Positions 3,081 through 29,500 are shown, counted from the first letter of the stretch. The stretch is DNA of 64,000 bases from Candidatus Kerfeldbacteria bacterium (GCA_043799405.1 JAZDNT010000002.1:107320-171319), one strand, 5' to 3'. Translations and numbers: made by a program. Notes: generated by a model from the letters alone, not told the origin.

Positions 3081-3087
3081 GATGTCC

Positions 3088-5499: not shown

Positions 5500-5673
5500 T
5501 GAGTAAGCCTCATGGTCCCGCAGGCTGCGACACAGGGGTGAGAACGGCACTAGTCGCTTGATAGCCAATGCGTTACGGCGTAGTGAGCATACTGAGACTG
5601 AATCTGTTCGTCAATCTCTTCGGCGTACAAGAAAGGACGGGGCCGTCGAAACGCCAACAGCCCCGTAACTACG

Positions 5674-6135: not shown

Positions 6136-6315
6136 GCGCTTATGCCGTGCACGGCATAAGTCGTCCTATGCCGAGTCGATCCTTATGCAGAGTTGACGGG
6201 CTTCTGCCGTGGGAGCCGTGCACCCGCTGACGCCGTTGCTCCGCATAACCGTACCCTCCTCTCCCGCGCCCGCCGTCATACCGACGACAGGCAGCCCGGG
6301 GGAGGAGGTTTCTTC

Positions 6316-9475: not shown

Positions 9476-9492
9476 CAGAAGGGGCGCTTCAC

Positions 9493-9921: not shown

Positions 9922-9937
9922 GTCCAGCCTCTGAGTT

Positions 9938-10000
9938 CGCGACGTAGCGAAAGACGCACGCATCGTTATGGAAAGCGATGCGTGCGTTTGGTTCTAATGA
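9938..10000. repeat. about 60 bp repeat, copy 1, with a 12 bp perfect stem-loop
   Basis: cgaaagACGCACGCATCGttatggaaagCGATGCGTGCGTttggttcta. The second copy is at 12508-12568. Confidence 0.8.
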
Positions 10001-10122
10001 GCGGCGCCAACCCACGACCCGGTCAGCGTAACGAACGTCTGGGTGCTTTCTCCTTCCGCTGAACACGGTCGCGGCCCTCCGTCGAGCGGCGCGCAGCATG
10101 CGCGCGCGACGCCCGGCGCGAG

Positions 10123-11871
10123 TCACCGCTGGCCCCATCGGGCGCGAATCCCACCCCCGTAGATGGTTGTGACGTGCAGGCCCCGCAGGGCTCCCCATAC
10201 CCGGGCCGCATTCTCGAGGTCGGGTTGGCCCGAGTTGAGGTAGTCATACGCGAGGTCCCTGTCACCGTACCGGTCCAGCAGGTCGATCATGTCCGGGATC
10301 CACGACTCGTCACCCGCCCGGATCAGGTCGAGGCTCGCGCTCCTCGCCGCCGCGCGAGCCTCGTCCGGGACGGACGGGAACAGGGTCACGGCGGCCATCG
10401 CCTCGCCGATCCGATGCAGGTCCGCGGTGGGGTCGGCCCCTCGGCTGAAGACCTGCGCCCAGGTCAGCTCGCCGCACTTGAGTCGAGCCACCATCTTCGT
10501 GGCGGGGTCATGCGCCGCCGCAGCGACCCGCCGCAGCGAGGCGCCGTCCAGGAGTTTGCCGAGAGCAATCTTCGACACGTCTCGGTCGGTCGAGGCCGCC
10601 GCCACGCTCTCGAGGTCCGCCGGTGCACGCAGACGCCCAACCGCTGCGACGCGGACGACGTCAAACGGACCTTCCAGCGCCTGCTTGACCAGTTCCGTCG
10701 CCACCGCGTGCTGTTCGACATCCGCCGCCCGAAGTCGGATCCGCGCCTGCTCGGCCCGCGCCCGAGCAGCGGCGGCCGGTTCGCGAATCCGGGCGACCGC
10801 CGCGTCCCGCGTGGACTGGTAGAAGTCGGTCGCGGCGACCTCCTGCAGCGAGGACGGCTGGCGAAGCGCGCGCACGATCGCCAGCCTGACCTTTGCCGAG
10901 GATTCACCTCGGAGGAGCTTCAGCAGACAGCCGTCGTCTCCTATGCCTGACACGGCCGCTGCACGAACGGCCGCCCGCGGAGACGTCGCCAGACGCTTCG
11001 ACCCGCCCGGGTCCTCCAGCAGGAGCGTCGCCAGCACCCGCACCTCCGGATTCCTGTCTCCCCAGGCGAGCGCAGCCAGAAACGAGGGGTCGCCCAGCTT
11101 GAGCAGCGCGCATTCGCGAACGAACGGATCGGCCGCCTCGAGTGCGATATGGCCAAGGAGCTTCCGGTCGGTCATGCGGTGGACGGCGGACCTGCTCCAC
11201 ACTTCGCCGGGCCTACGCAGGACCTTATCGGCGAGGCTTCGTTCACGATCGAGCGCCTTCCGGGAGATCCTTCCGCCGGGCATCGCCCGGTGTTTGCCCA
11301 ACCCGAGAGCCACTGCCGAGATGTCGTCGTCGAAGGGAAGTCCTATCGGGTTTCCCTGGCGAAGACCCCATAATCGGAAGCTTGCCTCGGAAGCCACGGA
11401 CCGAGGGCTGCCTGTCCGGGCGAGCTCTTCCAGCAGGCGCTCGTCGGTGATTCCGTGGATGGCGATGTTGGCCACCTGCTCGAGAAGATCCTCGTCCAAC
11501 GTCCCCGCGCGAATGACATAGGGAATGCGATCGTCCTCGTCGTCGCACTCCACGGCGACCCTCGCCAAGAGCGGCTGGTCGACCAGTGTTCTCAGCGCCC
11601 ACCCGCGGATCCTCGGGTCATCGAATTCGATCACGACTCGCGCCAGGGACGACTGGGCGGGCGGGCTTCGGAGATCCAGTCTGTCCACTGCGGCCCGCCG
11701 CACCTCGGCGTCGGAGTCCCGCACGGCGACGCTGGCCAGAATGGCCTCGTCTCTCACCGCGCGGAGGGCCGCCTTGCGCTCCTGCGGGTCTGCGCTCTCG
11801 AGCCTGGGACTGCAACCGGCCATCACCGCGGCTAGGAGGATCCCAGCGACGAGGCTGCGGCCATGTCGCAT
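10123..11871 (-). CDS. HEAT-repeat lipoprotein (cargo of the RIT element)
   Basis: Start MRHGRSLVAGILLAAVMAGC (signal peptide plus lipobox-like MAGC) with GGGAGGGAG SD. Repeated HEAT-like units (DAEVRRAAVDRL, NPEVRVLATLLL, SAKVRLAIVRAL, FDVVRVAAVGRL). Confidence 0.7.
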   Translation of the reverse strand: MRHGRSLVAGILLAAVMAGCSPRLESADPQERKAALRAVRDEAILASVAVRDSDAEVRRAAVDRLDLRSPPAQSSLARVVIEFDDPRIRGWALRTLVDQPLLARVAVECDDEDDRIPYVIRAGTLDEDLLEQVANIAIHGITDERLLEELARTGSPRSVASEASFRLWGLRQGNPIGLPFDDDISAVALGLGKHRAMPGGRISRKALDRERSLADKVLRRPGEVWSRSAVHRMTDRKLLGHIALEAADPFVRECALLKLGDPSFLAALAWGDRNPEVRVLATLLLEDPGGSKRLATSPRAAVRAAAVSGIGDDGCLLKLLRGESSAKVRLAIVRALRQPSSLQEVAATDFYQSTRDAAVARIREPAAAARARAEQARIRLRAADVEQHAVATELVKQALEGPFDVVRVAAVGRLRAPADLESVAAASTDRDVSKIALGKLLDGASLRRVAAAAHDPATKMVARLKCGELTWAQVFSRGADPTADLHRIGEAMAAVTLFPSVPDEARAAARSASLDLIRAGDESWIPDMIDLLDRYGDRDLAYDYLNSGQPDLENAARVWGALRGLHVTTIYGGGIRARWGQR

Positions 11872-12507
11872 GTTCACTGCTCCCTCCCTTGCGAGGCCAC
11901 CCATCGCGCGATCGGACTCCTGGCTTGGCCAGACGTGTCCCCTCGAGCCCCCGTGGCCATGCATCACCTCCGACGCAAGGACCGAGAACGGCGCTTTCTC
12001 CGCATGGACTTGCTCTCGGGCTCAGGTGATTGGGCTGGCGGCAAGTGGCACTGAAGGAGCGACCCCATCCTGAGCAGGCCCCGTGCTGAGGTCAAGCGGT
12101 CAGCTAAGGCGCAAGACTGGTGGGCCGGAGGTGGCGGCCAGGCCGCCAAGTGGGGCTGCCAAGCTATGTGCCGGTGCGATGCGGGTGGGGCGGGTGCACG
12201 CGCCGCGCCAGCAACCCGACCTCCCCCGTCAGAAGAGCACGCAGCTCGGGCCCCCGCCACGAGGCCGCCCGGACATGCAACGGTGGCCCAATGTCCTACT
12301 TCTGGAAAAGTGGGACATTCCCGATTCGGCTGGGCAGGCGGGGGCCGGCCGGCGGCCGATCGGGTACCCGTCGCGCAAGAAAGACGCGGACCTGCACGGC
12401 CGCCCACAATGGAGTTGAAGTAGGTGACCGACCGGAGGTACATCTCTGCGGTCACCCCAGTCGCCTCGGGCCGGGGTCTCTGAGCGCAGCGTCCCACCTC
12501 TCCGTGC

Positions 12508-12568
12508 GCGTCGACACGAAAGACGCACGCACTGTTATGCGAAGCAGTGCGTGCGTTTCGTTCTAGAG
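12508..12568. repeat. about 60 bp repeat, copy 2, with a 12 bp perfect stem-loop
   Basis: cgaaagACGCACGCACTGttatgcgaagCAGTGCGTGCGTttcgttcta. The stem differs from copy 1 by paired compensatory changes (CATCG/CGATG versus CACTG/CAGTG). Confidence 0.8.
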
Positions 12569-12616
12569 AGCAAAGCGCGGTGGCCACTGACCGCGCATAA
12601 CCCATAGCCCAGCATA

Positions 12617-12889
12617 AGACCTCAGCCCGATGGCGAGGGCATAATCGGCGGCCGGCTTGCCGTTAACGCAGGTGAGGACCCCGAACATCTGGGCTCCATC
12701 TCGCGCGAGCGCGAAGGCCTCGGACTGGATCGTGAGGCCGAATCTCGGCACGTGGAGCTCTACCTCCTCGACGAAGCGGCCATACGGCACCGGGTGGTAG
12801 CTCTCCGTGGGTTCGGGCACGGGGATGGCGGCGAGATCGGCCTTGGTGGCCTCCCAGCCGCCGCGATGGACAACGAGCGTTCCGGACAT
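12617..12889 (-). pseudogene. DUF932-family protein, N-terminal fragment
   Basis: MSGTLVVHRGGWEATKADL...ADYALAIGLRS, then element-derived codons run on to a stop at 12563. The sequence continues logically into the fragment at 5674..6135 (GLRS | SYDRSLS...GSRTFVCDNL). Confidence 0.75.
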
Positions 12890-13589: not shown

Positions 13590-14360
13590 TTACTCCCCGC
13601 GCCAACGCTGGCAGTGGGCGAAGTACTCGCACTCGCTGCAACGCCACGATGGGTTGGGGTAGAAGTGCTCGGTCTGAATGGCCAGGGCGACTTGCTGGAT
13701 GAGCCGGGCGGTCCAGCCGAGGTCCTCGACCGTGCGGGTGGTCTCGTGCCGCTCCAGTCGAGGCTTGGTCGTCTTGAGCAGCATGTCGAGCCGGAGCTTC
13801 GGGATCGTCCCGTGGAGAAGGAAGAAGGCGAGGGCGTACGTGGACAGCTGCAGGTGCCGCTCGAGGCCCCCTTGCTCAAGGGTCCTTGCCGCCGTCTTCA
13901 GATCGACCAACGTCTCCCCCTCCTCCACGAGATCGACGACACCGCGGAGCCGCACGTCGAGCAGTTCGCCGGTCTCAGGATCGGCGAGGTCCAGCTCGAA
14001 GGGCTGCTCGACGGCGACGGGCTTCACTCCGTTCACGGACTCCATGTAGAGCTGGAGCATGGCGCGGCCCTTCTCGGCGAGAGAGTCCTTCGACTCGGCG
14101 CCAGTGAAGACCAACGGCTCCAGGTTCTGCGCGTACCAGTCCGCGTCGAAGATCTTGAGGACCTCGGTCAGGTCCGTCGTCCTGCCGGCGAGCCGTTCCT
14201 TGTGGAACCACTCGACTGCTGCATGGACAGACGAGCCGAAGGCGAGCGCGGAGGCCCGCCACGGCCGTGGAATCTGGTCCACGTACTGGAAGCGGTACTT
14301 GAGGGGGCAGCCGAGGTAAGCGTTGACCTGGCTGAGGCTAGAAGTCCGGGGTTGCTCCAC
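13590..14360 (-). CDS. PD-(D/E)XK nuclease, Cas4/RecB-like, with Cys cluster
   Basis: VVDLVEEGETLVDLKT (D...DxK), QLSTYALA (QxxxY). An N-terminal Cys (GCPLKY) plus C-terminal CSECEYFAHC fit a 4-Cys Fe-S site of Cas4/AddB-type nucleases. Confidence 0.75.
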   Translation of the reverse strand: MEQPRTSSLSQVNAYLGCPLKYRFQYVDQIPRPWRASALAFGSSVHAAVEWFHKERLAGRTTDLTEVLKIFDADWYAQNLEPLVFTGAESKDSLAEKGRAMLQLYMESVNGVKPVAVEQPFELDLADPETGELLDVRLRGVVDLVEEGETLVDLKTAARTLEQGGLERHLQLSTYALAFFLLHGTIPKLRLDMLLKTTKPRLERHETTRTVEDLGWTARLIQQVALAIQTEHFYPNPSWRCSECEYFAHCQRWRGE

Positions 14361-15030
14361 GGCCCGCTCCCTGGGGGGCAGGGTTCAGAAGCCGGTCAAT
14401 CATCGCCGTGGCCGCGGGCTTGGTGACCTCGGACAGCGAGCCCACTTGGAACAGGTCCTTGAGCCTCTCCTCGGCCGCTTCGCGCTGGTAGCCCTGGCCC
14501 GCCATGAGGCGGAAGAGGTACCGGCGCTGGGCCTCGGACATTGGCTCTGACCCGTTGCCGGATCGAGGCGCTGACTTCGGGGCTCCGTTCCCGTTCCCAC
14601 GCGGGCGCGCGGGAGTCGGGGTCTTGACGTGGCGTGGGGAGCGCGACGCAGGGGGTGCACCCGACCCGGGGCTTGAGTCCCGGTCCAGGCTGACGCCGTC
14701 CAACTCCTCGAAGGAGACGACGCCGACGTTGACGGCGTCACGGAGGGCGCGGGCCTTGGCCCGGGTCTCGGCCACGCGGATCAGGTGCGGGGCGAGGAAG
14801 TCCTCGACGCTGCCGGGATCGGCATCGCCGAGGCCCTCGAAATGGCCCCGCTCGACCTCGACGACCGCCTTGACGATCGCGAGGTGGCCGTTCTGATCGC
14901 TCGGGGTAGTGAGCAGCTCGGTCTGGATGGACTTAAGGCCCTCCTCGTGGGCCTTGGAGAGGAGTTCGGCATAGACGACGGCTTCCCGGGGCTCGGCAGG
15001 CGAGCCGGGGGCGATATTCTGGGCCTTCAT
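14338..15030 (-). CDS. hypothetical protein, possible DNA-binding/annealing partner of the adjacent nuclease
   Basis: 230 aa. Its stop overlaps the nuclease start by 23 nt. Conserved-looking core (RVAETRAKARALRDA), Pro/Ser/Gly-rich linker, helical C-terminus. Function not recognised. Confidence 0.45.
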   Translation of the reverse strand: MKAQNIAPGSPAEPREAVVYAELLSKAHEEGLKSIQTELLTTPSDQNGHLAIVKAVVEVERGHFEGLGDADPGSVEDFLAPHLIRVAETRAKARALRDAVNVGVVSFEELDGVSLDRDSSPGSGAPPASRSPRHVKTPTPARPRGNGNGAPKSAPRSGNGSEPMSEAQRRYLFRLMAGQGYQREAAEERLKDLFQVGSLSEVTKPAATAMIDRLLNPAPQGAGRGATPDF

Positions 15031-15182
15031 GGGAAGGCTCCTTGTCAGGGGGCGAGTGGGTCTGCCGAATCACGTGCAGCAGCGCTTTCTATAGGGTACG
15101 TTCGGAGCACTTACAGTCGTAGGAGGGCTAACGCGCTGGACGCGGCGCTCACTGTGGACGACTGCGCAAGGGACTAGGCTCC

Positions 15183-16583
15183 ATGAGAGACATGCTCTTT
15201 GTCAGCCATGCGAATCCTGAAGACAACGAGGCCGCGCGCTGGTTGGCCCTCCAACTCGCTCGCGAAGGCTATCCGGTCTGGTGCGACCTGACCAAACTTC
15301 TCGGGGGTGAAGACTTCTGGCGCGACGCTGAACAAGCTATCAGGGAGAGGACAGCTAAGTTCCTCTACGTTCTGACTCGCGTGTCGAACGACAAGCAGGG
15401 CGCGCTCGACGAGTTGCAGGTTGCCAAGAACGTCGCCCGCGAACACAAGTTCCACGACTTCATCATCCCGCTGCGGTACGACGATCTTCCGCCGCGTCAG
15501 GCCAACATTCGCTTGGCAAACCTCAATTCCGTCCCGTTTCACGGTGGCTGGGCTGCCGGTCTTGCTCAGCTCCTCCAGAAGCTCGCGGAAGAGGGCGTAG
15601 CGAAGGATCCCCGTTTCTCACCGACGTCAGTCGCGAAGTGGTGGCGTAGGTTCTATCGTAGGGAGCAACTACTTCGGCGGGAGCCCGAGAGACTCGTCTC
15701 GAACTGGTTTCCGGTTCTCGACCCACCGCCGTTGCAACTCCACGAGCTCCGCTCGCGCGATGCTGTCTCGGAACTGGAGCTTTCCAGAACGCTGCCATAC
15801 CCAGCCATCCAGCATGAGGAGTGCCTCGTCTCATTTGCCGACGCGCATGACTTCGCCGAGGCACTCCCAGCTGGCCTTTCGGTGGTGCGCTCGCGGCGCC
15901 TCATGCTAACCCGTGATGCTGAAGACGAGCGGCGCGAGTGGTGGACCTTCGACCAGGAGCACAACGCCCTGATCGCGCTCCTTCGCCAAGCCTGGGTGAA
16001 GCACCTGCGGGATCGGGCCATGCCGACCTACGTCTTTGCGAGCGGTGGCGAGTCGATGTACTTCACCTCGGGCCTAGCCTCGGAGGACCGGGTGTACCTT
16101 CCGTCGAAGAACGGCGGCCGTCAGCCCTACCGGCAGGTGCTCGGCTTTGCCACAACGCGAAAGGCCACGGCCGAGGCGCCAGCGAGGCTGCGGTACTGGC
16201 ACTTTGGCGTGGAAGCGCGGCCGACGCTTGATCCGCAGCTTGCCTACGCGATGCGGCCGCATGTCCTCTTCTCTGACGACGGGCAGACGATCTGGGACAA
16301 CAAAGACCTCCTGCACCGAGCGCGCCGCAACCAGTGTAAGCAGTGGTGGAACGACGTCTGGCGAGACCGCCTTCTCGGAACGGTCCTTTGGCTCGCGGAT
16401 GGCAAGGAGCATCTCGCCCTGTCTGCGGGGTCCAGTCAGACCTTGCTTCTTGCCACGCGGCCGCTCGAGTACACCTCGCCGCTGACCTACGACGATTCGG
16501 GCTTCGAGGGCCCACCGCTTGATGAGGGAGACGATGAGGACATCGAAGAAGAAGCCTCCGCGCCGGCGAGCGGGTCAGTCTAA
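15183..16583 (+). CDS. TIR-APAZ protein (SPARTA effector subunit)
   Basis: N-terminal TIR-like domain (LFVSHANPEDNEAARWLALQLAREGYPVWCD, ...GALDELQVA...). Long APAZ-type region (SNWFPV, YWHFGVEA, KQWWNDVWRDRLL). Acidic C-terminal tail (DEGDDEDIEEE). Sits directly upstream of a short pAgo. Confidence 0.85.
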   Translation: MRDMLFVSHANPEDNEAARWLALQLAREGYPVWCDLTKLLGGEDFWRDAEQAIRERTAKFLYVLTRVSNDKQGALDELQVAKNVAREHKFHDFIIPLRYDDLPPRQANIRLANLNSVPFHGGWAAGLAQLLQKLAEEGVAKDPRFSPTSVAKWWRRFYRREQLLRREPERLVSNWFPVLDPPPLQLHELRSRDAVSELELSRTLPYPAIQHEECLVSFADAHDFAEALPAGLSVVRSRRLMLTRDAEDERREWWTFDQEHNALIALLRQAWVKHLRDRAMPTYVFASGGESMYFTSGLASEDRVYLPSKNGGRQPYRQVLGFATTRKATAEAPARLRYWHFGVEARPTLDPQLAYAMRPHVLFSDDGQTIWDNKDLLHRARRNQCKQWWNDVWRDRLLGTVLWLADGKEHLALSAGSSQTLLLATRPLEYTSPLTYDDSGFEGPPLDEGDDEDIEEEASAPASGSV

Positions 16584-16638
16584 GCCAACGCTCAGGCCTC
16601 CTCACCGCCGGAGTCGACTCCAACGCGGATCGATCCTC

Positions 16639-18138
16639 GTGCTGCGGGAGCCAAGGGTCCTCTTTCACCACAGCCAAGCACTTGAGGACCCACGTGATGG
16701 CCTGACGCTCTTTGGCCCGCTCGAAGGCCCGTTCGGGCTCCGGATTGGGGTCATCGGCACGCTGTACGGCATTCGCCTATACCGCGCGTGGGCCGAGCGC
16801 ATCCGCGGGCCGCTCGCGAACGAGGTGGGGTCGTACCTCTCTGATCCACACTTTCCCGGGTTCGAGTCGGCGTTCCGCATCCCGTGGCAGCTTGAGCCTG
16901 CGCTCACGATCGAGGTTGACCCCGAAGAGCTCGATCGAGTTGTACACCACGGCGACCCTCACCAGCGCGTCTTTGCTACGGTCGCCCTATTTGCCGAGCC
17001 GATCGTCGCGGCGCTGCGGAATGAAGAGGTCAAGGTCGACGTCTGGTTCGTGGTCATCCCGGATGTCGTGCACGAGAACTGCCGCCCGCGGTCTCGCTTG
17101 CCGCTCGATGAACGCACCGAAGATGATGCACCGGCGCACATCCGCGCCAAGGAGGCGCGGGAGCTTTTCGATCAGCCCTCGCTTTTCGCGGAAGATCACG
17201 AGGCGGCCACTCCGTACTACTTCGAGGTTGACTTCCACAACCAGCTCAAGGCCCGGCTCCTCGGGAATCTGGCGCCCACCCAGATTGTTCGCGAAAGTAC
17301 GCTCGCCTTCCCACCGAAGGAGGTGCGCCTACCGCCGGGTCGCGACAAACGCAAGCTCCAAGCAGCGGTGGCCTGGAGTCTTTCAACCGCCGCCTTCTAC
17401 AAGGCCGGCGGGAAGCCCTGGAAGATCGCCGAGATCCGCAAGGGCGTGTGCTACGTCGGGCTCGTCTTCAAGCAGGACGTAACGCAGCGCGATCCTCGCA
17501 TGGCATGCTGTGCCGCGCAGATGTTTCTGGACTCCGGAGATGGGACGGTCTTCCGCGGAGCGGTTGGGCCATGGCATTCATCTGAGCGCCACGAGTTTCA
17601 CCTTAGCCACGCAGCGGCTCGCGAGCTCATCGCCGTGGCGGTGGCCTCGTACGTAGACAAGGCCGGGCATCCACCACGGGAGCTCTTCATCCACGGCAAA
17701 GCGTATTTCGAAGATGAAGAATGGGCAGGTTTCCAGGCAGGCGTCGACGCGCGAATGACCACGCTCGTCGGCGTGCGTATCCGAGACACAGCAGATCTGC
17801 GGTTGTACCGGCCTGGCACTCACCCGGTCTTGCGCGGCACAGCTCTCGTGCGTGGCCGCAACTCTGCGTACCTGTGGACTCGCGGATTCGCCCCGCTCCT
17901 GCGTACGTACGTCGGACGCGAGGTCCCGAAGCCGCTCCGGATCGATGTGCTCCGTGGCACGGCCGAACTGCGCAAGGTCCTTGCCGACATCTTGGCTCTG
18001 ACCAAGCTCAACTTCAACACCTGCATCTTTGCCGATGGCCTGCCAGTTACTTTGCGATTTGCGGATGCTGTCGGCGAGATCCTGACAGCTGGTCCCGTCG
18101 GGCAGAGCAACCCACTCGCGTTCAAGTACTACATCTGA
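16639..18138 (+). CDS. short prokaryotic Argonaute (MID-PIWI only; SPARTA sensor subunit)
   Basis: PIWI hallmarks AAFYKAGGKPWKI, CCAAQMFLDSGDGTVFRG, LTKLNFNTCIFADGLPVTLRFAD, C-terminal ...LAFKYYI. About 500 aa, so it lacks N/PAZ domains. Start is uncertain: GTG 16639 (chosen by expected length), or ATG 16522/16534, which overlap the upstream gene. Confidence 0.85.
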   Translation: MLREPRVLFHHSQALEDPRDGLTLFGPLEGPFGLRIGVIGTLYGIRLYRAWAERIRGPLANEVGSYLSDPHFPGFESAFRIPWQLEPALTIEVDPEELDRVVHHGDPHQRVFATVALFAEPIVAALRNEEVKVDVWFVVIPDVVHENCRPRSRLPLDERTEDDAPAHIRAKEARELFDQPSLFAEDHEAATPYYFEVDFHNQLKARLLGNLAPTQIVRESTLAFPPKEVRLPPGRDKRKLQAAVAWSLSTAAFYKAGGKPWKIAEIRKGVCYVGLVFKQDVTQRDPRMACCAAQMFLDSGDGTVFRGAVGPWHSSERHEFHLSHAAARELIAVAVASYVDKAGHPPRELFIHGKAYFEDEEWAGFQAGVDARMTTLVGVRIRDTADLRLYRPGTHPVLRGTALVRGRNSAYLWTRGFAPLLRTYVGREVPKPLRIDVLRGTAELRKVLADILALTKLNFNTCIFADGLPVTLRFADAVGEILTAGPVGQSNPLAFKYYI

Positions 18139-18218
18139 TGTTAGGCGCAGATTGGTAAACGCACGCAGCCTGCTGCATCGCTGTGGGACACGTACTCACG
18201 CACGAACGGGGCAGGGCC

Positions 18219-18974
18219 ATGCTTCCAAAGAGACCCACTGACATTCGCTCGGCAGTCGACCAGCTCTTCGACAAGGAACCACTCCCCCCTGACCTTGCCC
18301 GGCATCTTCTGAGTGCGTGGAGCTCCAATCTCAACGCCACGGAGCGCAGCGTGAGTCGTGGATTTCTTGCGATCGTCGCTACCTTTGCGGGGTTCATAAC
18401 CCTCGACACGAAGATCCTGACAAAGATCGCGTTTCAAGGTGCCGAAATTGGACGCACTGGAATCATCCTATGCTTTGCCACTGGCGCAATGTCCTATTTT
18501 TATTACAGATGCATTACACAGCTAGGATTTGCCCATGACCTGCGCACGGCGATTGCAGTGCTCTATCGGAGGCTCCATGAGCCTGTTTATATCGGCGGCC
18601 TTGATCTCCTGACCCACGTACCGAGCATAAGGAATCTAGAGGCATACGATTCATTCTATGCGCCCAAAAGCCTCCGCGTCTTTCACGAGCGAACAACGGA
18701 TGTGGTCACACTTGCCCTACTGCTTGGCCCTCTGGTCGTGGTCGTATACTGCACGATTCGGCTGTGGAGTTATCCCGATGTTAGACCTGTCCTCTGGACT
18801 GTCACTGTCTTGGCGGCGCTCGTGTTTGTCTTGCGCGCGTGGCTCTATGGTCTCAGGCAGAAGGGTGATGATGTCTTCGCCGATCGCCGCTTGGAGTCGC
18901 TGTCCGACTCCCCCAAGGGAGCGGGCGCCAACGCTGCGGAACACGATGACGAGGCAGTCGCGCCAAAGTCCTGA
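18219..18974 (+). CDS. hypothetical 4-TM membrane protein downstream of the SPARTA pair
   Basis: Same strand, about 80 nt after the pAgo stop. Hydrophobic helices (FLAIVATFAGFITL, GIILCFATGAMSYFYY, VVTLALLLGPLVVVVYCTI, VLWTVTVLAALVFVL). Locally more AT-rich than its neighbours. No family recognised. Confidence 0.55.
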   Translation: MLPKRPTDIRSAVDQLFDKEPLPPDLARHLLSAWSSNLNATERSVSRGFLAIVATFAGFITLDTKILTKIAFQGAEIGRTGIILCFATGAMSYFYYRCITQLGFAHDLRTAIAVLYRRLHEPVYIGGLDLLTHVPSIRNLEAYDSFYAPKSLRVFHERTTDVVTLALLLGPLVVVVYCTIRLWSYPDVRPVLWTVTVLAALVFVLRAWLYGLRQKGDDVFADRRLESLSDSPKGAGANAAEHDDEAVAPKS

Positions 18975-18994
18975 TGCACACGCAAGCCCTCGGG

Positions 18995-19230
18995 CCAGCT
19001 GCGATAGCTAGTGCGAGAGCATCAAACATGTGCAGCCAGTACTTGTCCCGCGGTCGCAGCCCCAGCGCCGCCCGTTTCGGGATCAACTCCTTCAGCTCAT
19101 CGAGACGCCTGCCTGACCAATGCCTCCGCGACATGGATCTTCGTCGCCTTCGGGTTCCCGACCACGGGGGGATCGCACTCTCCGGAGCGCGTCAAGGGGT
19201 TCTTTGCTTTGGTCTTGTCCGACGTCAGCT
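18995..19230 (-). pseudogene. 5'-truncated, frameshifted remnant of a RuvC-like gene
   Basis: Two minus-strand frames give ...GNPKATKIHVAEALVRQ... and ...IPKRAALGLRPRDKYWLHMFDALALAIAA, matching the C-terminal ~80 aa of CDS 20548..21066. A 26 nt core is identical (19025-19050 = 20594-20619). Confidence 0.7.
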
Positions 19231-19979
19231 TATACCGGCCATAGCCGATCAGCTCGTGCGCCGGGTTGCCACGGGTTGACGGCCCAGACTTCTCTGAAGT
19301 GCACCGTCTCGCGACGCAGCGCCGCGCGCATTTCTCCCAGCTCGGTGTCTCCGTACGGAGTAAGGTCGAAGAAGATCGCCAGGACGACCTCTGACGGCAC
19401 TGGTCCGAGGTGCAACTGCTTCTTGCGGAGAGCCTCGAGTCCGCGCGCGGCCACGACGTCGTGGTCGAAGTGAAATGGTGGTCCCTGAATCGAGATGTTT
19501 GACCGATCAGCGTCGATGCCTTCGAGTTCCATCTCGGCGATGCCCATGTCGTCCGCATGCGGCGCGAGAATCCTCTTCTCGCCGGGGGAGAGCGGCGAAA
19601 CCACACTCCTCAAGATCGTCTCGCGGAGTACCGCGCCCATTGCCTTGCGATCACGTCGGCTATCTGGGAGCCGGTGAACCCAGATCGTCAACTTGAAGCC
19701 CTTCAGAGCCCCGGACATGAGCGGTTCCTGAATTTCCGCGTAAGCCCACTGCCCCGCTATCGCCCGCTTCGCCCGCTCCTCCTTCTCATTGCTCGCAGCG
19801 CAGGTGTGCTGCACGAGGAGCGGCGGGGCGCCTCGGGCGGAGCTGGGCCAACGGTAGTCCCAGTCGGTGTGCGGAGCCTCGATGGGCTGGCCGGCGAACG
19901 CGGTGTGGTGAATGCGGTTGTACGCCGAGAGAAAGAGATCAAGGAATTTCTGTCGTGCCAAACCTTTCAGTTCAGCCAT
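19230..19979 (-). CDS. hypothetical protein (249 aa)
   Basis: Start MAELKG with GGAGGGAGAGG SD. Balanced, globular-looking composition. No family recognised. Confidence 0.55.
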   Translation of the reverse strand: MAELKGLARQKFLDLFLSAYNRIHHTAFAGQPIEAPHTDWDYRWPSSARGAPPLLVQHTCAASNEKEERAKRAIAGQWAYAEIQEPLMSGALKGFKLTIWVHRLPDSRRDRKAMGAVLRETILRSVVSPLSPGEKRILAPHADDMGIAEMELEGIDADRSNISIQGPPFHFDHDVVAARGLEALRKKQLHLGPVPSEVVLAIFFDLTPYGDTELGEMRAALRRETVHFREVWAVNPWQPGARADRLWPV

Positions 19980-20202
19980 TCGCCTCTCCCTCCATCCGCT
20001 ACAGACTAACAAGTCTCTAGCGCCACGGCCATCCCCAAGGCTCATGCCTGCGTCGCCATTTATCGCATTCGTCGTCCTAATCCTTTTGATTGTGGTCGGC
20101 TTGTGTTTGGACCGCTGGAAGCGCCTAGGCTCACGGCGCCCCATTGCCCTTCACTCAGGACCGTGCTTGAATAGAATGGTCCTATTACTAACGCATCACC
20201 TT

Positions 20203-20526
20203 ATGACTGAACGTAATCTAGGGATGGAGCACGGGGACAATGATCCCGAGAGAATCAAGGCGGCACTTACTGCAGAGCTTGCCGATCTCGCATCACGCAT
20301 GGCATCGGTCGACAGAAACGGCGTGACGTCGTTTCGTTTTGGCGACAAGCCACGCACAATGGATGAGGTCTATATTGAACTGGAAGTTGACGACGCCACA
20401 GGTGAAATCGAACTGATCGAGCCTGGGACCATCAAGGTGCACTCAAAAACGCATGATCCCGTCGAAGCCGCCCAGTGGGTTCGCGAACAGATTGCCCAAG
20501 AGGACGAGAAGCGGCGTGAGGCCTGA
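20203..20526 (+). CDS. hypothetical small acidic protein (107 aa)
   Basis: Divergent from 19230..19979 across an AT-richer spacer. MTERNLGMEHGDNDPERIKAAL... Start uncertain (ATG 20203 or 20224). Confidence 0.4.
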   Translation: MTERNLGMEHGDNDPERIKAALTAELADLASRMASVDRNGVTSFRFGDKPRTMDEVYIELEVDDATGEIELIEPGTIKVHSKTHDPVEAAQWVREQIAQEDEKRREA

Positions 20527-20547
20527 TCCACAAGCACCCGCTCCGGA

Positions 20548-21066
20548 TCAAGTCGCATTGACGCTTGCGGCGACCGCGATCGCCAGAGCGTCGAACATGT
20601 GCAGCCAGTACTTGTCCCGTGGTCGTAGCCCGAGCGCCGCACGCTTCGGTCGATTCGGGATGAGTGGCGTGAGTTGGTCAAACCCCTGCGCTACGAGCAC
20701 CTCGGCCACCTCGATCTTCGTCGTCCTTGGGTTCCCCGTGACGCGCTCGCGAATCGTCGCCGGCGACAGCTCGACGACCACAACCCCCAACTCTTCTGTC
20801 CTGCTCCGCAGTTCCTGCTCGATCACCGACATGAGCGCGGCCCGTTTGGTCGGGAGCATGAGGGGTTCCTCGATCGCCACGATGTCGGGCCCGTGCTTCT
20901 CGATTTCCGCGAGGACGATTCGCTTCGCCTGCCCGATCACGTCGTAGGGTCGGGTACCATTCCGAAGCGTCCGCACGCCGTAGGCGAGCAGCTCACGTCC
21001 GCGGAGGACAGCGAGACCCATCTCCTTCGTTCCGGGATCGATGCCGAGGATGGTCTTGTGTTGCAT
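20548..21066 (-). CDS. RuvC-like Holliday-junction resolvase fold nuclease, copy A
   Basis: ILGIDPGTKEMGLAVL (Asp 1), IVAIEEP (Glu), HMFDALAIAVAA (Asp), in the order expected for RuvC-family catalytic acidic residues. 172 aa. Confidence 0.7.
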   Translation of the reverse strand: MQHKTILGIDPGTKEMGLAVLRGRELLAYGVRTLRNGTRPYDVIGQAKRIVLAEIEKHGPDIVAIEEPLMLPTKRAALMSVIEQELRSRTEELGVVVVELSPATIRERVTGNPRTTKIEVAEVLVAQGFDQLTPLIPNRPKRAALGLRPRDKYWLHMFDALAIAVAASVNAT

Positions 21067-21186: not shown

Positions 21187-21702
21187 TCACCGGCCGCGGG
21201 AGGGCGGTTGCGTCGCTGTCTGGTGGTGCATGGCGAGCGCGACGGCGTCGAACATGTTCTGCCAGAAGCGCTCCTTCCACTTCCGGTCCTGCGTGAGGTA
21301 GACGCGGAGCTGCGGGAAACGCACTGCGACAGCCACGGCTGCTTCAGCCTTCGTGGCTCGTCCGTTGCCGAGCACGCCCTGGCGGACCTGCTGCGGCGAG
21401 TAGGTCGCAAACGGGATGCCCTGCAACCGGGCGAGTCGACGCACCGTGAGGGTCAGGCGGTGGACATCGTCGAGCCAGGGCAGGGGGTGGTGGTACGTCT
21501 TCTCCATCACGATCGCGTGCGGGTGGTGCAGACGGAGCCAGCCCTTCACGTGCCGGCGGACTTCTTTGAGGCGCGCGCTGCGAGGCAAACGTCGAAGCGT
21601 CAGGGCTCCGGCGGCAGCGAGCCGGCGGCCGGAGAGCACGGCCATGCCGAGGTCGCGGAGACCGGGATCGATGGCGAGGATGGGTTCAGTTCGATGGTTC
21701 AT
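21187..21702 (-). CDS. RuvC-like nuclease, copy B (paralog of copy A)
   Basis: ILAIDPGLRDLGMAVL, AIVMEKT, NMFDAVALAMHH. 171 aa. Its start overlaps the upstream wHTH gene by 17 nt. Confidence 0.7.
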   Translation of the reverse strand: MNHRTEPILAIDPGLRDLGMAVLSGRRLAAAGALTLRRLPRSARLKEVRRHVKGWLRLHHPHAIVMEKTYHHPLPWLDDVHRLTLTVRRLARLQGIPFATYSPQQVRQGVLGNGRATKAEAAVAVAVRFPQLRVYLTQDRKWKERFWQNMFDAVALAMHHQTATQPPSRGR

Positions 21703-24193: not shown

Positions 24194-25798
24194 ATGCCCT
24201 CCCACGTCATCTACGCTCGCAAATCCACCGAGTCCGACGACCGCCAGGTCCTCTCGATAGACTCCCAAATCCAAGAGCTGAAGACGCTCGCGCTGCGTCG
24301 TGGCATCACGGTCGCGGATGTGCTGACCGAGGCGCGTTCAGCCAAGGCACCAGGGCGCCCGGTCTTCGGCGAACTCATGCGGCGCGTACGTCGCGGCCAA
24401 ATCGGCGGCATCCTCTGCTGGAAGATGGACCGGCTTGCACGAAACCACCTCGATCATGGCGTAGTCCTTCAGGCACTCGCCGATCGGCAGCTGCGGGAGG
24501 TCATCACCTCGGACCGAACCTACACGGGCGACGGCAACGACCGCTTCCTCGGCAACTTCGAGCTCGGCATGGCCACGAAGTTCATTGATGACCTTCGCGC
24601 GAACGTGAAGCGCGGGAACCGCGCACGCTTCCAGCGCGGCTGGCCGAACTACCGTCCGCCCGCCGGCTACCTCGAGGACCACGCGACCAAGACGATCGTG
24701 AAGGACTCCGTGCGCTTCGACCTCATCCGCCGGGCATGGGACCTGCTGCTTACCGGCACGGTACGCCCGAGCCGGATCTTGGTCGCCCTAAACGACGAGT
24801 GGGGCTACCGCTCCCGGCAGACCAAACAGCGGGGTGGCAGCCCGATGTCGCTGTCCGGCCTTTACGGGATCTTCGAGAACCCGTTCTACGAGGGCCTGAT
24901 CCGTCTCTCCAGCGGCGAGACCTACAAGGGCGCGCACGAGCCGATGGTCGCGCCCGAGGAGTTCGAACGGGCCCAGGAGTTGCTCGGTCGTCCAAGTCGA
25001 GCCCGGCCGGTGCACCACGACTTCACTTTCTCGGGGCTTCTTCACTGCGCCTCGTGCGGCCGGGCGTTAGTCGCCGAGGCGCACATCAAGCCGAGCGGCA
25101 AGCGCTACGTCTACTACCGCTGCCACCGCAGGCGTATCGGCGAGACCTGCTCCGAGCCGGCGCTGCCTGAGGAGATCCTCCGCGAGCAGCTGGTCCAGGA
25201 CCTCAAGCGGATGCGCCTGACACCCGAAGCGGCCGGCTGGATCCGCGACAACCTCAAACACTCGCTCGAGGGCGAGGTCGGCCAACTTCGCACCGTCCGG
25301 GCATCACTGGAGAACGCCGTCCGGCAGGCAGGTGCCGAAGAAGAGACGCTCCTCACCCTGCGGCTCCGAGGCTCGATCGACGACGGGATCTACGAGCGTC
25401 GCAAAACGGCGCTTCAAGACCGCAGGGCGCAACTGCAGCTACGACTCGACCGGCCCGATCAATCGCCGGAGGAGCTGCTAGAGCGCGTGGAACAGGCTCT
25501 CGCCTTCTCGCTGCACGCCCCGCAAGTCTTCCGTGATGGCACGCGGGTTCAACAACGGCAGATCGTGGAGGTGGTCGGGTCGAACTATCGGGTCACCCGG
25601 AGAAAAGCGCTCTACACAGCGAACAAGCCGTTCTCCCTGTTCACGGAAGCAACGGCTTCTTCGCTCTGGTGGACCGTGGCGGATTCGAACCGCCGACCTC
25701 TGCAATGCGAATGCAGCGCTCTACCAGCTGAGCTAACGGCCCTTATTCTGGTTCCCCCACCAGGAATCCCCGCCTGCCTTAAGCTCTGCCCCCACTAG
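24194..25798 (+). CDS. large serine recombinase (integrase)
   Basis: N-terminal resolvase domain (VIYARKSTESDDRQVLSIDSQ, catalytic Ser context). Recombinase domain. Zinc ribbon (CASCGRALV...YYRCHRRRIGETC). Coiled-coil region. The ORF has no stop until 25798, so its last ~45 codons are tRNA-Ala, the spacer and part of tRNA-Arg. Confidence 0.9.
   Translation: MPSHVIYARKSTESDDRQVLSIDSQIQELKTLALRRGITVADVLTEARSAKAPGRPVFGELMRRVRRGQIGGILCWKMDRLARNHLDHGVVLQALADRQLREVITSDRTYTGDGNDRFLGNFELGMATKFIDDLRANVKRGNRARFQRGWPNYRPPAGYLEDHATKTIVKDSVRFDLIRRAWDLLLTGTVRPSRILVALNDEWGYRSRQTKQRGGSPMSLSGLYGIFENPFYEGLIRLSSGETYKGAHEPMVAPEEFERAQELLGRPSRARPVHHDFTFSGLLHCASCGRALVAEAHIKPSGKRYVYYRCHRRRIGETCSEPALPEEILREQLVQDLKRMRLTPEAAGWIRDNLKHSLEGEVGQLRTVRASLENAVRQAGAEEETLLTLRLRGSIDDGIYERRKTALQDRRAQLQLRLDRPDQSPEELLERVEQALAFSLHAPQVFRDGTRVQQRQIVEVVGSNYRVTRRKALYTANKPFSLFTEATASSLWWTVADSNRRPLQCECSALPAELTALILVPPPGIPACLKLCPH
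25667..25742 (-). tRNA. tRNA-Ala (anticodon CGC), CCA encoded
   Basis: Manual cloverleaf: GGGCCGT/ACGGTCC acceptor stem with G3:U70, D-stem GCTC/GAGC, anticodon stem CTGCA/TGCAG, loop TTCGCAT, T-stem GGCGG/CCGCC. 76 nt. Confidence 0.9.
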
Positions 25799-25858
25799 GA
25801 ATCGAACCTAGATCTATCCCTTAGGACGGGATTGTTCTATCCCTTGAACTATGGGGGC
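25787..25858 (-). tRNA. tRNA-Arg (anticodon CCU), no encoded CCA
   Basis: Manual cloverleaf: GCCCCCA/TGGGGGC acceptor stem, D-stem GTTC/GAAC, anticodon stem ATCCC/GGGAT, loop GTCCTAA, T-stem CTAGG/CCTAG. 72 nt. G at position 32 is unusual. Confidence 0.8.
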
Positions 25859-25982
25859 TCAGGCCGAGGCGGGCGGGTCTATCCATTGTCCCGCCATTCA
25901 GCGGGATCCCGCCGATATCTGAATACATCAATTATGGTGGCGGAAAACTACGGGGGTAAATGGCTAATTGTTAACGTTCTTA

Positions 25983-26004
25983 AAATGTTCCACGTGGAAC
26001 ATTT
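25983..26004. repeat. 22 bp perfect palindrome
   Basis: AAATGTTCCACGTGGAACATTT lies in the AT-rich spacer between the tRNAs and the first low-GC genes. Confidence 0.9.
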
Positions 26005-26071
26005 ATTTCGCAATAATGTGTTTTTAGTAGTAATTTTTGCTTAGTTTAAGCGATTTTATTGCGTCGTAAAA

Positions 26072-26353
26072 TCAATAGTTTCTTACAATTCTTGATAAAA
26101 TCGAATTTGATAGCGAGCTTATCCAGTTATTTCGTTTATTTGTTATTTCAAGAGTAACAAATAGGGCTCCAATAATTACGATTATGAAAAGAACGGAGAA
26201 TAATTCTTTTTTTACAATTTTTTGATACTGATCTGAATAAATATCCTCATTTTGAATTTCCTTATCAGGAATAAAATCATTACTTTGTGATTTATCCGCT
26301 GATATTTGCGGCTTTTCCAGTGCAAATAGCCGCTTTTTCTTGTTCTTGCTCAT
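26072..26353 (-). CDS. hypothetical small membrane protein (AT-rich gene)
   Basis: 93 aa. Lys/Asn-rich N-terminus and one TM helix (LFSVLFIIVIIGALFVTL). Confidence 0.45.
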   Translation of the reverse strand: MSKNKKKRLFALEKPQISADKSQSNDFIPDKEIQNEDIYSDQYQKIVKKELFSVLFIIVIIGALFVTLEITNKRNNWISSLSNSILSRIVRNY

Positions 26354-26425
26354 TGGTTGATATTAATTACTACGCATGAGTTTAGCATTATATATAAAAA
26401 AGATAAACGGAAATAATATCTGGTA

Positions 26426-26454
26426 TTGACAAAAATTGCTAATTATAATATAAT
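26426..26454 (+). promoter_or_regulatory. consensus sigma70-type promoter
   Basis: TTGACA (26426-26431), 17 nt spacer, TATAAT (26449-26454), about 60 nt upstream of ATG 26513. Confidence 0.55.
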
Positions 26455-26512
26455 GAATATAGACAAAATATTATAAAAGGAATATAAAATAACATTCAAA
26501 TACGATCTGGGT

Positions 26513-29500
26513 ATGGTTAAAACTTTGATCCATATCCGTAATTCATTAGGAAATCGACTGGTTGAGCTCGAAGAAGTCGAAAATTTTGTTATTGATCAAA
26601 TCTTTATTGTCCAACTGTTTGTCTTTATAATAACACTTTTCGCACGCGTTGGTCTTGAATTTCTATCATTCATCATTTCGATCCCGCTAAACCTTAAATG
26701 GACTCCACAGCAGGGGTTTCAGCAACTCGCACGAAGAAAAGATAATGGCGAATACATTGATTCGTATACCTCATTTATCCGTCGGCAACGGATGTCAGTT
26801 GCGACCTCGATTGTTACTTTGCTATTGCTCGCAAGCCAATTTTACGTCATTGGGTTAGGAATCGTTGGTATTGGAAAGCCATCTAAAACAGAGGCGTATA
26901 CAACGAGCGTTGAAATTAACCCGAGCTGGGATATAACCTCGCAGGATATAGTAACTTATGACCTTAGCTGCGAGCCGGCCGGCGATGCGTATTCCTGCCT
27001 TCTTGCTAGTCAAACAACTTTACGAAGTGGGAATAACGGTTTGCTTGATTGCGACTCGTCAGACACTTATTACATTGCTTTCATGAAATTTCCATTGACT
27101 GATTTATACGTACCGAGCGGCGCAACAATTACAAAAGTTGAATTAAAAGTCAATGTCACTACAAATTTTGCTGGTGATAGTATATCGATCTATACAACCA
27201 GTGACAATATTCAAACCGAGTCATGCAACACCGGTGCACTGTTTAATGATCTCGATCAAGGCGTGGGTAGCCCTTCCGATTGGAATACTACCGGTTTAAA
27301 AACCGTCGTACTTGACTCTAACGCCATCAATGCGGTGCAGGCAAAAATCACTACCAGTGAGGTTATTGGTTTGGCCGTCTCGGCTTCGGGGGGGGAGGTC
27401 GGTTATTTCACTTCGACTGACAGCAGTTCGAACAAACCGATCCTTAAAGTGACTTATACGATGCTACCGCAAGCGCCAACAGCGGCCACGCCTAACCACA
27501 GCGCCAATTCAACCAGCACGATCACCTGGAACTGGGTCGATCATGCAACCGAAGATAGCGCCGGGAGCAACAGCCAGCGGATCATGGATGGGACTAACGT
27601 TAAATGTTCAACCACCGGCGACATGGCGACAACCGGGGCGACCATGTCCTGCCAGGAAACAAGTCTTTCAGCTAACACTGCTTACACCCGAAAATCGAAC
27701 ACTGTTGATCCGCAAGGCAATACCGACGGTCCGAACATGACCGCTTACACCTCGATCGAGACGCCGTCTGGTATTTCCTTCAGTAACGTTACTACCACAG
27801 GTATTACGACTACCGCCACTGGCACAATTTCCAACCTTACCAGTGATTCCTCTGGTTTGTACTTTCAAGAGTCGGTGACGAGCACGAACTCCGATTGGAC
27901 ACAGACGAACTCCTGGGCAAAGTCAGGTCTCACCGCGAATACCCAGTACAGCTTCCAGGTCAAGGCACGGAACGGGAACTCTGACGAAACCTCGCTTACG
28001 GCCGCCACGACAAAATACACGCTTTCGGTTACGCCGAGTGCGGCCAGCACGCGGGTAACTTCCGCCTGGTACACGAGCGGTACCTTTCCCTTCACCAACC
28101 CGGTTGGGTGGGGGGCCGGCGGCATCCAATATTATCGTTACGCCTGGGATACAAGCCCAATCTATGCCTTTGCTGGTACGGAAAGTACTTGGAGCAGTCT
28201 TGACGCTAATTGCCCGGGCGGGACATGTACGGATGCGGGTACGACCCTGTCTAAGACTGCGACCACTAAAAGTGATTTATGGTATCTCCACCTCCAATCT
28301 TTCAATGCAGAAGGTATCGCTAATGGAAGCGGTAGTAGTTTCGGACCTTATTACTATGATGGCTCGGCACCGGTGTTTTCTAGTTTTTCCGCAACCCCAA
28401 CTACTAATGGCGCCACCCTGAGCTGGACAACTGACGAACCAACCACGACCCAACTTGAATATGGAACGACCATATCATACGGCACGAACACCGCGCTCGA
28501 TGCCACCTTGGCGACCTCTCACACCGTGACATTGTCAGGCCTGGCGGCGGGTACGGCTTTCCATGCCCGTGTTCTCGGCACTGATGAGGCTGGCAATACT
28601 GGTCAGTCCAGTGATTTGTCTTTTACCACCACGAGCGCGGCGCAAACTCTGATCACCAATGTTCAGGTGTCATCTATCAGCCCGACTTCCGTAGTTATCA
28701 CCTGGACCACTAACGAACCAGCGACCTCGAAGGTGCGTTATGGCACCAGTACCGATTACGGATTAGAGGTCAGCGATAACGCCTTGGTGACTAGCCATAG
28801 TCTGACCATAACTGGTTTAACTCCTGGTACGACCTACCACTACGAGGTCATTTCTGTCGGTAGCACGACCGACCACGACGCCGACGCGACGTTCACCACT
28901 TCCGCATCAGCCCCGATAACCACCCTGTCCGCGGTCCGCGCCGTTGTAGGAGAGACCATCGCCACGGTCTACTGGACAACGAACGAAGCAGCGACCTCGA
29001 TGGTCCACTACGGCACGACGACTGACTACACAGGAGCGAAGTCGAGCACGGAAAAGACCGCATCCCACAGGATCCAGCTCACTGGCCTCACCCCGGGAAC
29101 CCTCTACCACTACATGGTCGTGAGCGTTGGAAGTACGGCGGACTCATCGAGGGACTTCACCTTTACGACTGGTACTCCAGAATCTACTACGAACCGAGCG
29201 ATCGGGCCGACGATCTTCGGGACCGTACTGCATGACGGCGAATCGCCAACCATCGACCTCAATGGCATTGCCAAGGGAGACCAGACGCTCACGGTCTACG
29301 TTGACGGAAAGAAGGTCAAGACAATAAAAACAGCCGGTTCCTCCTCGAAGACTCAATCGTTCTCGGTCGCCGTTCCTCTCGGGAAGCTCTCGAAGGGCAA
29401 GCACACGCTCTATGTCCAGTCGACCGATGCAGAGGGCAGGACGAGCAGGGTCGTGCAGCGTATCACCTTTACGATCGGCGTATCCGAACACGGAGTGCTG

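Follow-up and report, generated by a model that had tools for sequence, protein, structure and literature searches.

In the present study, we analysed a stretch of 64,000 nucleotides (nt) of DNA from Candidatus Kerfeldbacteria bacterium (GCA_043799405.1, JAZDNT010000002.1:107320-171319), here called the window, and in particular three open reading frames (ORFs) that follow a SPARTA pair, i.e., the genes for a TIR-APAZ protein and a short prokaryotic Argonaute (pAgo). The window carries an integrative element with a large serine recombinase, next to a tRNA-Ala gene, and the region between its intact RuvC-like resolvase gene (RuvC1) and a conserved gene for a protein of 230 amino acids (aa) is likely a cargo hotspot of this element, to which two of the three ORFs would have been added as an insertion cassette. 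The three ORFs (locus tags V1907_01270, 01275 and 01280), here designated ORF A, ORF B and ORF C, are not one module but probably independently acquired passenger genes; they show three different distributions and two different compositions. The features of the locus, with the evidence for each, are as follows.

14338..15030, minus strand: 230-aa backbone gene, left border of the hotspot (tblastn matches in 71 related loci at 47-74% identity; no Pfam match)
15031..20547, no strand: probable variable cargo hotspot between the 230-aa gene and RuvC1 (synteny with L004/L036, L016, L028, L039, L043, L050, L053, L072 and L087, related loci being designated by L numbers)
15183..16583, plus strand: TIR-APAZ gene of SPARTA (PADLOC Aga_TIR-PNTD1-PNTD2, E=4.3e-122; Pfam TIR_2, E=2.9e-18)
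16519..18138, plus strand: short pAgo gene of SPARTA, true start probably near 16630 (PADLOC pAgo_I, E=3.4e-189, alignment from residue 39)
18219..18974, plus strand: ORF A, 251-aa membrane protein, in slot 2 with SPARTA (homologue alignment, hydropathy, AlphaFold2 model)
18998..19200, minus strand: pseudogene fragment, frameshifted 3' third of RuvC1, residues ~104-172 (direct repeats; tblastn and blastx to RuvC1 proteins)
19230..19979, minus strand: ORF B, 249-aa soluble alpha/beta protein, cargo of slot 1, co-oriented with the backbone (homologues, AlphaFold2 model)
20150..20177, plus strand: sigma-70-like promoter match upstream of ORF C (TTCACT-16-TAGAAT, 9 of 12 positions, a consensus match only)
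20203..20526, plus strand: ORF C, acidic 107-aa orphan ORF and doubtful gene (an in-frame alternative ATG at 20044 adds a hydrophobic N-terminus)
20548..21066, minus strand: RuvC1, intact RuvC-like resolvase, right border of the hotspot (Pfam RuvC, E=5.4e-07; phrog_159, E=6e-13; 55-83% identical in related elements)
21187..21702, minus strand: RuvC2, second RuvC-like backbone gene (Pfam RuvC, E=7.6e-12; conserved in related elements)

An earlier note on this DNA, made from the sequence of the window, had described the three ORFs and could place none of them in a family. Both points hold: all three lie at the coordinates it gave, and none of them matches Pfam, NCBIfam, PHROGs or PADLOC at E<=0.1. 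An assignment to ordinary phage structural or metabolic families, which the note had named as an outcome that would speak against its suggestion, was likewise not obtained, as ORF A, ORF B and ORF C have no PHROG or Pfam match and no tblastn match in 50,697 phage records.

The region lies in an island of 63-70% GC, which ends at the tRNA-Ala gene (25667-25742) adjoining the large serine recombinase gene (24194-25798) and past which the GC content falls to ~55%, with a short stretch of 26-42% GC. An attachment site (att) repeat of the tRNA-Ala end was searched for within the window and not found, and the left end of the island was therefore not located. The backbone genes in the window follow the order serine recombinase, helix-turn-helix protein, two DnaD-like genes, RuvC2, RuvC1, hotspot, 230-aa gene, PD-(D/E)xK exonuclease, RadC and DUF932, and RuvC1, RuvC2 and both DnaD-like genes have a GC content at third codon positions (GC3) of 0.74-0.83. 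Contig WBZT01001520.1 (L004), from which the ORF B homologue P0015 comes, shows gene-by-gene synteny with the window; its exonuclease is 82% identical to that of the window, and the variable part lies between RuvC1 and the 230/241-aa gene. The same backbone synteny is present in many of the 86 related loci that were fetched with the exonuclease as anchor, few of which bear an organism title, namely those from metagenome-assembled genomes (MAGs) labelled Eisenbacteria, Phycisphaeraceae and Chloroflexi.

Both borders of the hotspot could be mapped in 13 cases, in which its length ranges from 0.7 kb (L043) to ~9 kb (L021) and the gene content is unrelated between elements. PADLOC recognised defence systems in four of the 13, i.e., SPARTA in the window, SPARDA in L028, Lamassu in L039 and Shedu in L053. 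The SPARDA of L028 (6423-9208, minus strand), composed of a restriction endonuclease (REase)/DUF4365-APAZ gene (E=7e-151) and a short pAgo gene (E=7e-165), has the same position next to the 230-aa gene and the same orientation as SPARTA in the window, suggesting that Argonaute modules are exchanged at this position. The Lamassu of L039 (5295-9012) encodes LmuB (E=3e-87), LmuC and an LmuA with a Cap4 nuclease domain, and the Shedu of L053 (2917-3831) encodes SduA (E=2e-85). With SPARDA, Lamassu and Shedu in the sister hotspots, the earlier suggestion that undescribed defence or accessory genes might plausibly be located here gains in substance. Further cargo includes M48 peptidases with SHOCT, UbiA, ~1300-aa proteins (outside the family-library scans) and unannotated genes. 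A Peptidase_M48 protein of ~450-510 aa with a C-terminal SHOCT domain adjoins the 230-aa gene in both L050 (7666-9195) and L087 (7819-9162) and is a recurrent cargo.

The truncated RuvC-like remnant that had been noticed between ORF A and ORF B was confirmed, with 83% identity of positions 18998-19080 to 20567-20649 and 73% identity of positions 19105-19159 to 20682-20736. This fragment at ~18998-19200 requires two reading frames, lacks the N-terminal two thirds of RuvC1 and also matches the RuvC1 3' ends of many related elements; as it spans residues ~104-172 only, it has neither the complete RNase H-like fold nor the catalytic acidic residues of the N-terminus. Degenerate C-terminal fragments of RuvC1 occur in four of the 13 mapped hotspots (window, L028, L044 and L053), and all four begin near RuvC1 residue 100-113, each downstream of the first cargo block behind the intact RuvC1. 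The remnant splits the hotspot into two slots, with slot 1 following the intact RuvC1 and slot 2 lying beside the 230-aa gene:

Window: slot 1, ORF C and ORF B; slot 2, ORF A and SPARTA
L053: slot 1, Shedu; slot 2, ~1300-aa protein
L028: slot 1, 367-aa membrane protein and UbiA; slot 2, SPARDA
L044: slot 1, 410-aa protein; slot 2, ~1300-aa protein

The Shedu system of L053 hence sits in the slot equivalent to that of ORF B and ORF C in the window. Since the remnant-divided hotspot is seen in four elements, the reading of ORF B and ORF C as an insertion cassette between the RuvC remnant and the intact copy, already proposed in the earlier note, appears right and part of a recurrent pattern, with the same architecture in L028, L044 and L053.

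Slot 2 would be the older slot, and the slot 1 cargo, ORF B and ORF C, would have arrived later, most likely by recombination within the 3' third of RuvC1 that left this third duplicated. Either a single crossover of the Campbell type, by way of a circular intermediate, or two crossovers, one homologous and one illegitimate, could have been involved; we infer the route from the anatomy of the locus. The donor was probably a sister element that already carried ORF B downstream of RuvC1, because ORF B is found downstream of RuvC1 in L004 and L014 and directly upstream of the 230-aa gene in L015.

Among the three ORFs, the status of ORF C as a gene is the least certain. The encoded protein is strongly acidic (25 D/E versus 14 K/R), and the GC content of its codon positions is 0.67/0.40/0.58. 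That ORF C is not a gene, and that the ~570-nt stretch between ORF B and RuvC1 is non-coding or decayed DNA with the ORF B promoter and an accidental open frame, is a tangible possibility, if somewhat short of an even chance. It is in line with the lack of homologues (a self-hit only among 5.8 billion clusters, and none in the phage records or in any fetched locus), with the lack of a recognisable Shine-Dalgarno sequence at 20203 and with a gene of 370-400 aa on the opposite strand at the same position in L004 and L014. Moreover, in composition-matched simulations a 107-aa ORF arises by chance in this 568-nt stretch with P ~0.24, i.e., in ~24% of simulations. On the other hand, the frame is open throughout 19980-20526, and for the 160-codon version starting at 20044 the corresponding value is P ~0.014; GC is lowest at codon position 2 throughout the frame, the promoter-like site at 20150-20177 lies upstream, and no remnant of the 401-aa gene that accompanies ORF B in L004 was detected in 19980-20547.

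ORF B is far better defined. Its start (19979) is preceded directly by GGAGGGAGAGG, the strong Shine-Dalgarno sequence seen before, and the MAEL... start is conserved in the homologues. Six close homologues of ORF B were found, and an exhaustive profile search, clustered at 50% identity, gave 68 clusters for the family, most of whose members are ~250 aa long and stand alone. D41 and K187 are retained without exception, and Q57 almost without exception. Roughly a dozen proteins, shorter or of another architecture, match the C-terminal ~75 residues only, and ORF B therefore seems to consist of two modules. One further protein, P0044 (813 aa), matches the ORF B profile in nine separate stretches and may be a repeat protein of the N-terminal module or an artefact. 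The AlphaFold model is confident (predicted local distance difference test score, pLDDT, 85.5), and a Foldseek search of PDB and BFVD returned nothing at E<=0.001 (best E=0.05, TM-score ~0.2). TtAgo provided the top PDB rows of this search and was rejected as a relative, the matches being insignificant. PDB profile searches with 6 and 46 sequences gave noise only, a Pfam scan of the 46 family members revealed no common family, and tblastn against plasmid and phage records found no relative; none was found in IMG/VR either, for which the broad alignment was too divergent as a query.

The neighbourhoods of the ORF B homologues point to nucleic-acid conflict or mobile-element biology, and nucleic acid is the probable target of ORF B. 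In L004, the same hotspot has the order RuvC1, a 401-aa gene and ORF B, and L014 is arranged likewise; in these two loci the upstream neighbour is a 401/369-aa protein and the convergent downstream neighbour a 483-aa protein. In L015, the homologue lies directly upstream of the 230-aa gene with an AlbA_2/Schlafen protein as neighbour, and in L013 it is accompanied by an insertion sequence (IS) transposase and a 324-aa protein. R-N-x3-H motifs (RNRVIH, RNGLAH, RNAFSH) stand near the C-termini of several of these neighbours (L004 4201-5406 and 6341-7792; L013 2442-3416; L014 463-1572), and the 401-, 483- and 324-aa proteins with R-x4-H motifs are possibly unannotated HEPN-type RNases, a reading of the motif for proteins that have no Pfam match. 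Two contigs carry a relative with 30% identity, which is flanked by a UvrD/GajB-like helicase on one side and a Cas4/PDDEXK-RNase_H_2-SF1 helicase on the other, with AbiE adjacent. The clusters concerned (L102 4133-13662 and L103 744-10273) contain the UvrD/GajB-like helicase, three small proteins, the ORF B-like protein and a 1118-aa, MkoA-like Cas4/PDDEXK-RNase_H_2-SF1 helicase, with AbiEi/AbiEii adjoining in L102, and may represent an undescribed multi-gene system. With respect to a nuclease function, the invariant D41 is followed in the next strand by a conserved Q57-x-T59, and the lysine of the PD-(D/E)xK motif is absent from that place. A relationship of ORF B to Mrr_cat or PDDEXK_1 was tried by hhalign against small mini-profiles and rejected with probabilities below 1%.

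ORF B might instead be an optional backbone gene of the recombination/replication module of the element, together with the RuvC resolvases, exonuclease and RadC, rather than defence cargo. Its orientation is that of the backbone, its place is downstream of RuvC1, and its GC3 of 0.74 is element-like, unlike that of ORF A (0.62) and ORF C (0.58); its close homologues are confined to this element family, and the distant homologue is embedded between helicase and nuclease genes. We consider this quite unlikely, as most hotspots lack ORF B (it occurs in two of the 13 mapped, i.e., the window and L004, and outside these in L015 with its 230-aa gene and probably in L014) and its neighbours vary from the 401-aa protein with the Rx4H motif over the AlbA_2/Schlafen protein and the IS transposase to ORF C. 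Furthermore, the hotspot of L043 is near-empty (0.7 kb), which indicates that the element can do without ORF B.

A divergent two-gene module of ORF B and ORF C, e.g., a toxin or nuclease paired with an acidic protein that inhibits it or mimics DNA, would fit their joint arrival in slot 1, their divergent arrangement around a shared region of ~220 nt and the acidity of ORF C, yet it is very unlikely, given that an ORF C-like neighbour stands beside no ORF B homologue, that GC3 differs between the two (0.58 versus 0.74) and that ORF C is possibly not a gene.

ORF A was described in the earlier note as a membrane protein with four transmembrane (TM) segments whose DNA is locally AT-rich, and this was borne out. 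Its longest frame extends from 18183 to 18974 with a GTG start; since 11 aligned homologues begin with MSAKRP..., we place the start at the ATG at 18219, giving 251 aa. Hydropathy reveals strong hydrophobic segments at 49-67, 162-180 and 191-209 and a weaker one at ~77-97, the AlphaFold2 model is all-helical (pLDDT 63), and the DNA is AT-richer than its surroundings (GC 56%, GC3 0.62). The loop of ~60 residues between helices 2 and 3 is strongly conserved, with invariant D129, H133, R138, N139, E141 and D144, and would be cytoplasmic if the N-terminus is inside. Among the 5.8 billion clusters, 12 relatives with 43-100% identity were found, and none in 185,579 GTDB species genomes, in IMG/VR or, by tblastn, in plasmid or phage records. 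As members of the family remain 43-65% identical on contigs whose GC content is 51-61%, ORF A is a functional gene. A PDB profile search with 12 sequences gave noise only, Foldseek with the low-confidence model retrieved only generic helical bundles, and no SLATT or other Pfam membrane-effector domain was detected at E<=0.1.

Homologues of ORF A have Mrr_cat restriction-endonuclease genes zero to three genes away in L007 (299-2093), L001 (139-3390) and, weakly, L006 (2212-5599); in L007 the two genes overlap, and in L006 the homologue is the last gene of a compact four-gene operon. Other genes nearby encode HNH proteins and toxin-antitoxin systems. BLAST of the neighbours revealed no conserved upstream partner except two Mrr_cat proteins, and the association with Mrr_cat may be a recurrent partnership. 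We read ORF A as an autonomous cargo gene that is independent of SPARTA.

The SPARTA pair itself consists of a TIR-APAZ gene directly upstream of a short pAgo gene (MID-PIWI only), the arrangement by which membership in SPARTA is recognised, and has a GC content of 63% and a GC3 of 0.74-0.75; no close relatives of its pAgo were found in IMG/VR. Membrane effectors are known in other Argonaute systems, such as SiAgo-Aga1-Aga2 (PMC11370952, PMC11788926) and BPAM of the long-B Argonaute systems (PMC13535254), and following this precedent ORF A could be a third SPARTA component, i.e., a membrane effector or anchor that is triggered by the activated TIR-APAZ/pAgo complex or by NAD-derived products. 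ORF A does share slot 2 with SPARTA, lies on the same strand as pAgo and begins 80 nt past the pAgo stop with no terminator-like site between. The linkage to the pAgo operon that the earlier note had raised was not borne out, however. pAgo or APAZ genes are found in none of six independent contexts of ORF A homologues (L001, L003, L006, L007, L008 and L010), and an ORF A-like gene follows pAgo in none of eight plasmid SPARTA loci (pAgo 42-50% identical), in each of which the downstream gene is a different one: the sole co-oriented downstream gene has no TM segment according to hydropathy, and the other seven, judged by annotation only, comprise six named soluble-type products and one convergent hypothetical protein. 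In the SPARDA of L028, the pAgo stop is ~50 nt from the remnant, with no gene between. The survey for recurrence of ORF A-like genes downstream of SPARTA or short-pAgo operons yielded none in nine related Argonaute loci. Taking into account that ORF A also differs from SPARTA in GC3 (0.62 versus 0.74-0.75), has no match in PADLOC, which may or may not contain an Aga2 model, departs with its short N-terminus, four helices and central loop from SiAga2, in which a soluble domain is followed by a C-terminal TM region (PMC11788926), and neighbours a system that already has its own TIR NADase effector, a role as third SPARTA component is very unlikely, and the tempting idea of a membrane effector for SPARTA at this locus is removed as unsupported.

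Outside the hotspot, several further observations were made in the window. The serine-recombinase ORF runs through the tRNA-Ala gene (25667-25742), a tRNA-Arg gene follows at 25787-25858, and the GC content is then 26-42% for ~1.5 kb and later ~55%; the region 24194-27500 marks the site of integration or, possibly, a join made in assembly. The contig bears the label Candidatus Kerfeldbacteria (candidate phyla radiation, CPR), yet close relatives of the island (L016-L021) are binned in Eisenbacteria, Phycisphaeraceae and Chloroflexi MAGs of similarly high GC. The DUF932 gene is split (5722-6162 and 12617-12880, minus strand) by an insertion of ~6.4 kb at 6163-12616, which contains three tandem tyrosine-recombinase genes (6193-7563, 7281-8471 and 8306-9475) in the 'recombinase in trio' arrangement and also encodes a 614-aa HEAT-repeat protein (10123-11967, minus strand). 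To the left of the DUF932 fragment are type I restriction-modification genes (981-5568, minus strand; GC ~60-62%), which may be further cargo of the same island:

981-3080, minus strand: HsdM-like (N6_Mtase, HsdM_N)
3088-5568, minus strand: HsdR-like (ResIII, HSDR_N)

Several points weigh against a defence-cargo hotspot with a later cassette. A number of hotspots carry genes of non-defensive look, such as the M48 peptidase with SHOCT and UbiA, which makes the position in the hotspot alone weak evidence for defence, and PADLOC recognised a system in only four of the 13, in a scan covering part of the hotspot ORFs. The RuvC1 copies in the window are no more than 73-83% identical, so that the slot 1 event would be old or the donor divergent, and the four remnants could begin at one point because a single ancestral duplication was passed down within a sub-lineage, without repeated insertions. 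The short gap free of predicted terminators makes co-transcription of ORF A with pAgo possible, the nuclease idea for ORF B found support neither with Foldseek nor with hhalign, and none of the family searches assigned a molecular function to ORF A, ORF B or ORF C. Weighing these points, we still judge the account of the locus as a hotspot with an inserted cassette to be likely.

Cargo of the ORF A, B and C type would most probably serve defence against phages or other mobile genetic elements, or counter-defence. In P4 hotspots, genes without assigned function are often defensive (six of eight tested; PMC13586616, PMC9122126). For any one of ORF A, ORF B and ORF C, a defence role is a tentative proposal that falls somewhat short of probable. 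A more far-reaching proposal has ORF B, whose fold is absent from PDB, founding a new stand-alone or loosely partnered anti-phage or anti-plasmid family, the ~200-bp RuvC1 3' end serving as a reusable, homology-based docking sequence for stacking defence cassettes in integron style, and ORF A providing, by a single gene, another new membrane factor for defence or exclusion, which is also associated with Mrr-type nucleases; taken jointly, this is unlikely. Together, these results turn an unexplained gene cluster into a defined locus, which is probably a hotspot for defence cargo that had not been described before, in an integrative element widespread among uncultivated bacteria of soil and sediment. 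The conserved and unannotated families of ORF A and ORF B are candidates for new roles in immunity or counter-immunity, further cargo can be mined from the more than 80 related loci, and the recurring remnant of the core gene RuvC1 may show how cassettes stack.

Comparing the locus with known systems, SiAgo-Aga1-Aga2 and BPAM have in common with ORF A that a membrane protein is encoded beside, and co-oriented with, a catalytically inactive pAgo. They differ in that the linkage here is not conserved (none of six ORF A contexts, none of nine Argonaute loci), that there is no sequence match, that the pAgo is part of a full SPARTA pair, which brings a TIR effector of its own, and that the architecture of ORF A is unlike that of SiAga2. 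The pair corresponds to canonical two-gene SPARTA in having both genes, overlapping reading frames, strong PADLOC matches and a location on a mobile element, as in many plasmid examples; the pair itself is thus ordinary, and what differs are the extra adjoining genes, which are separate cargo. Shedu (SduA, DUF4263) and other single-gene PD-(D/E)xK nucleases offer a looser parallel to ORF B, which is of similar size, stands alone and occupies the slot that Shedu has in L053; its invariant Asp, followed ~16 residues on by a conserved Q-x-T in a strand, recalls D...(E/Q)xK. ORF B differs in having no sequence, profile or fold match to nuclease families and in the absent motif lysine, and the resemblance serves as a lead only.

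Campbell-type or homology-driven cassette capture resembles the present case in that the newer cargo is flanked by a directly repeated part of the bordering gene, from its 3' end, and differs in that the cassette here has no associated recombinase or att site and that the copies are 73-83% identical. The closest likeness is to the P2 and P4 defence hotspots, which belong to temperate phages and satellites (PMC9122126, PMC13586616): a fixed site between conserved core genes of a mobile element, with rapidly exchanged cargo in which known defence systems (here SPARTA, SPARDA, Lamassu and Shedu) stand beside many unannotated genes, and with core-gene pseudogenes in the locus, which are common in P4-type hotspots (PMC13586616). 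The differences are that another element family is concerned here (large serine recombinase, two RuvC genes, exonuclease, RadC and DUF932), in whose inspected parts no capsid genes were seen and which is known solely from soil and sediment bacterial metagenomes, and that a copy of one and the same ~70-codon piece, from the 3' end of a bordering core gene, recurrently divides its hotspot. Overall, the defence hotspot of a mobile element is of a known kind, and what appears to be new to the searched libraries is the element family with its split hotspot, together with the protein families of ORF A and ORF B.

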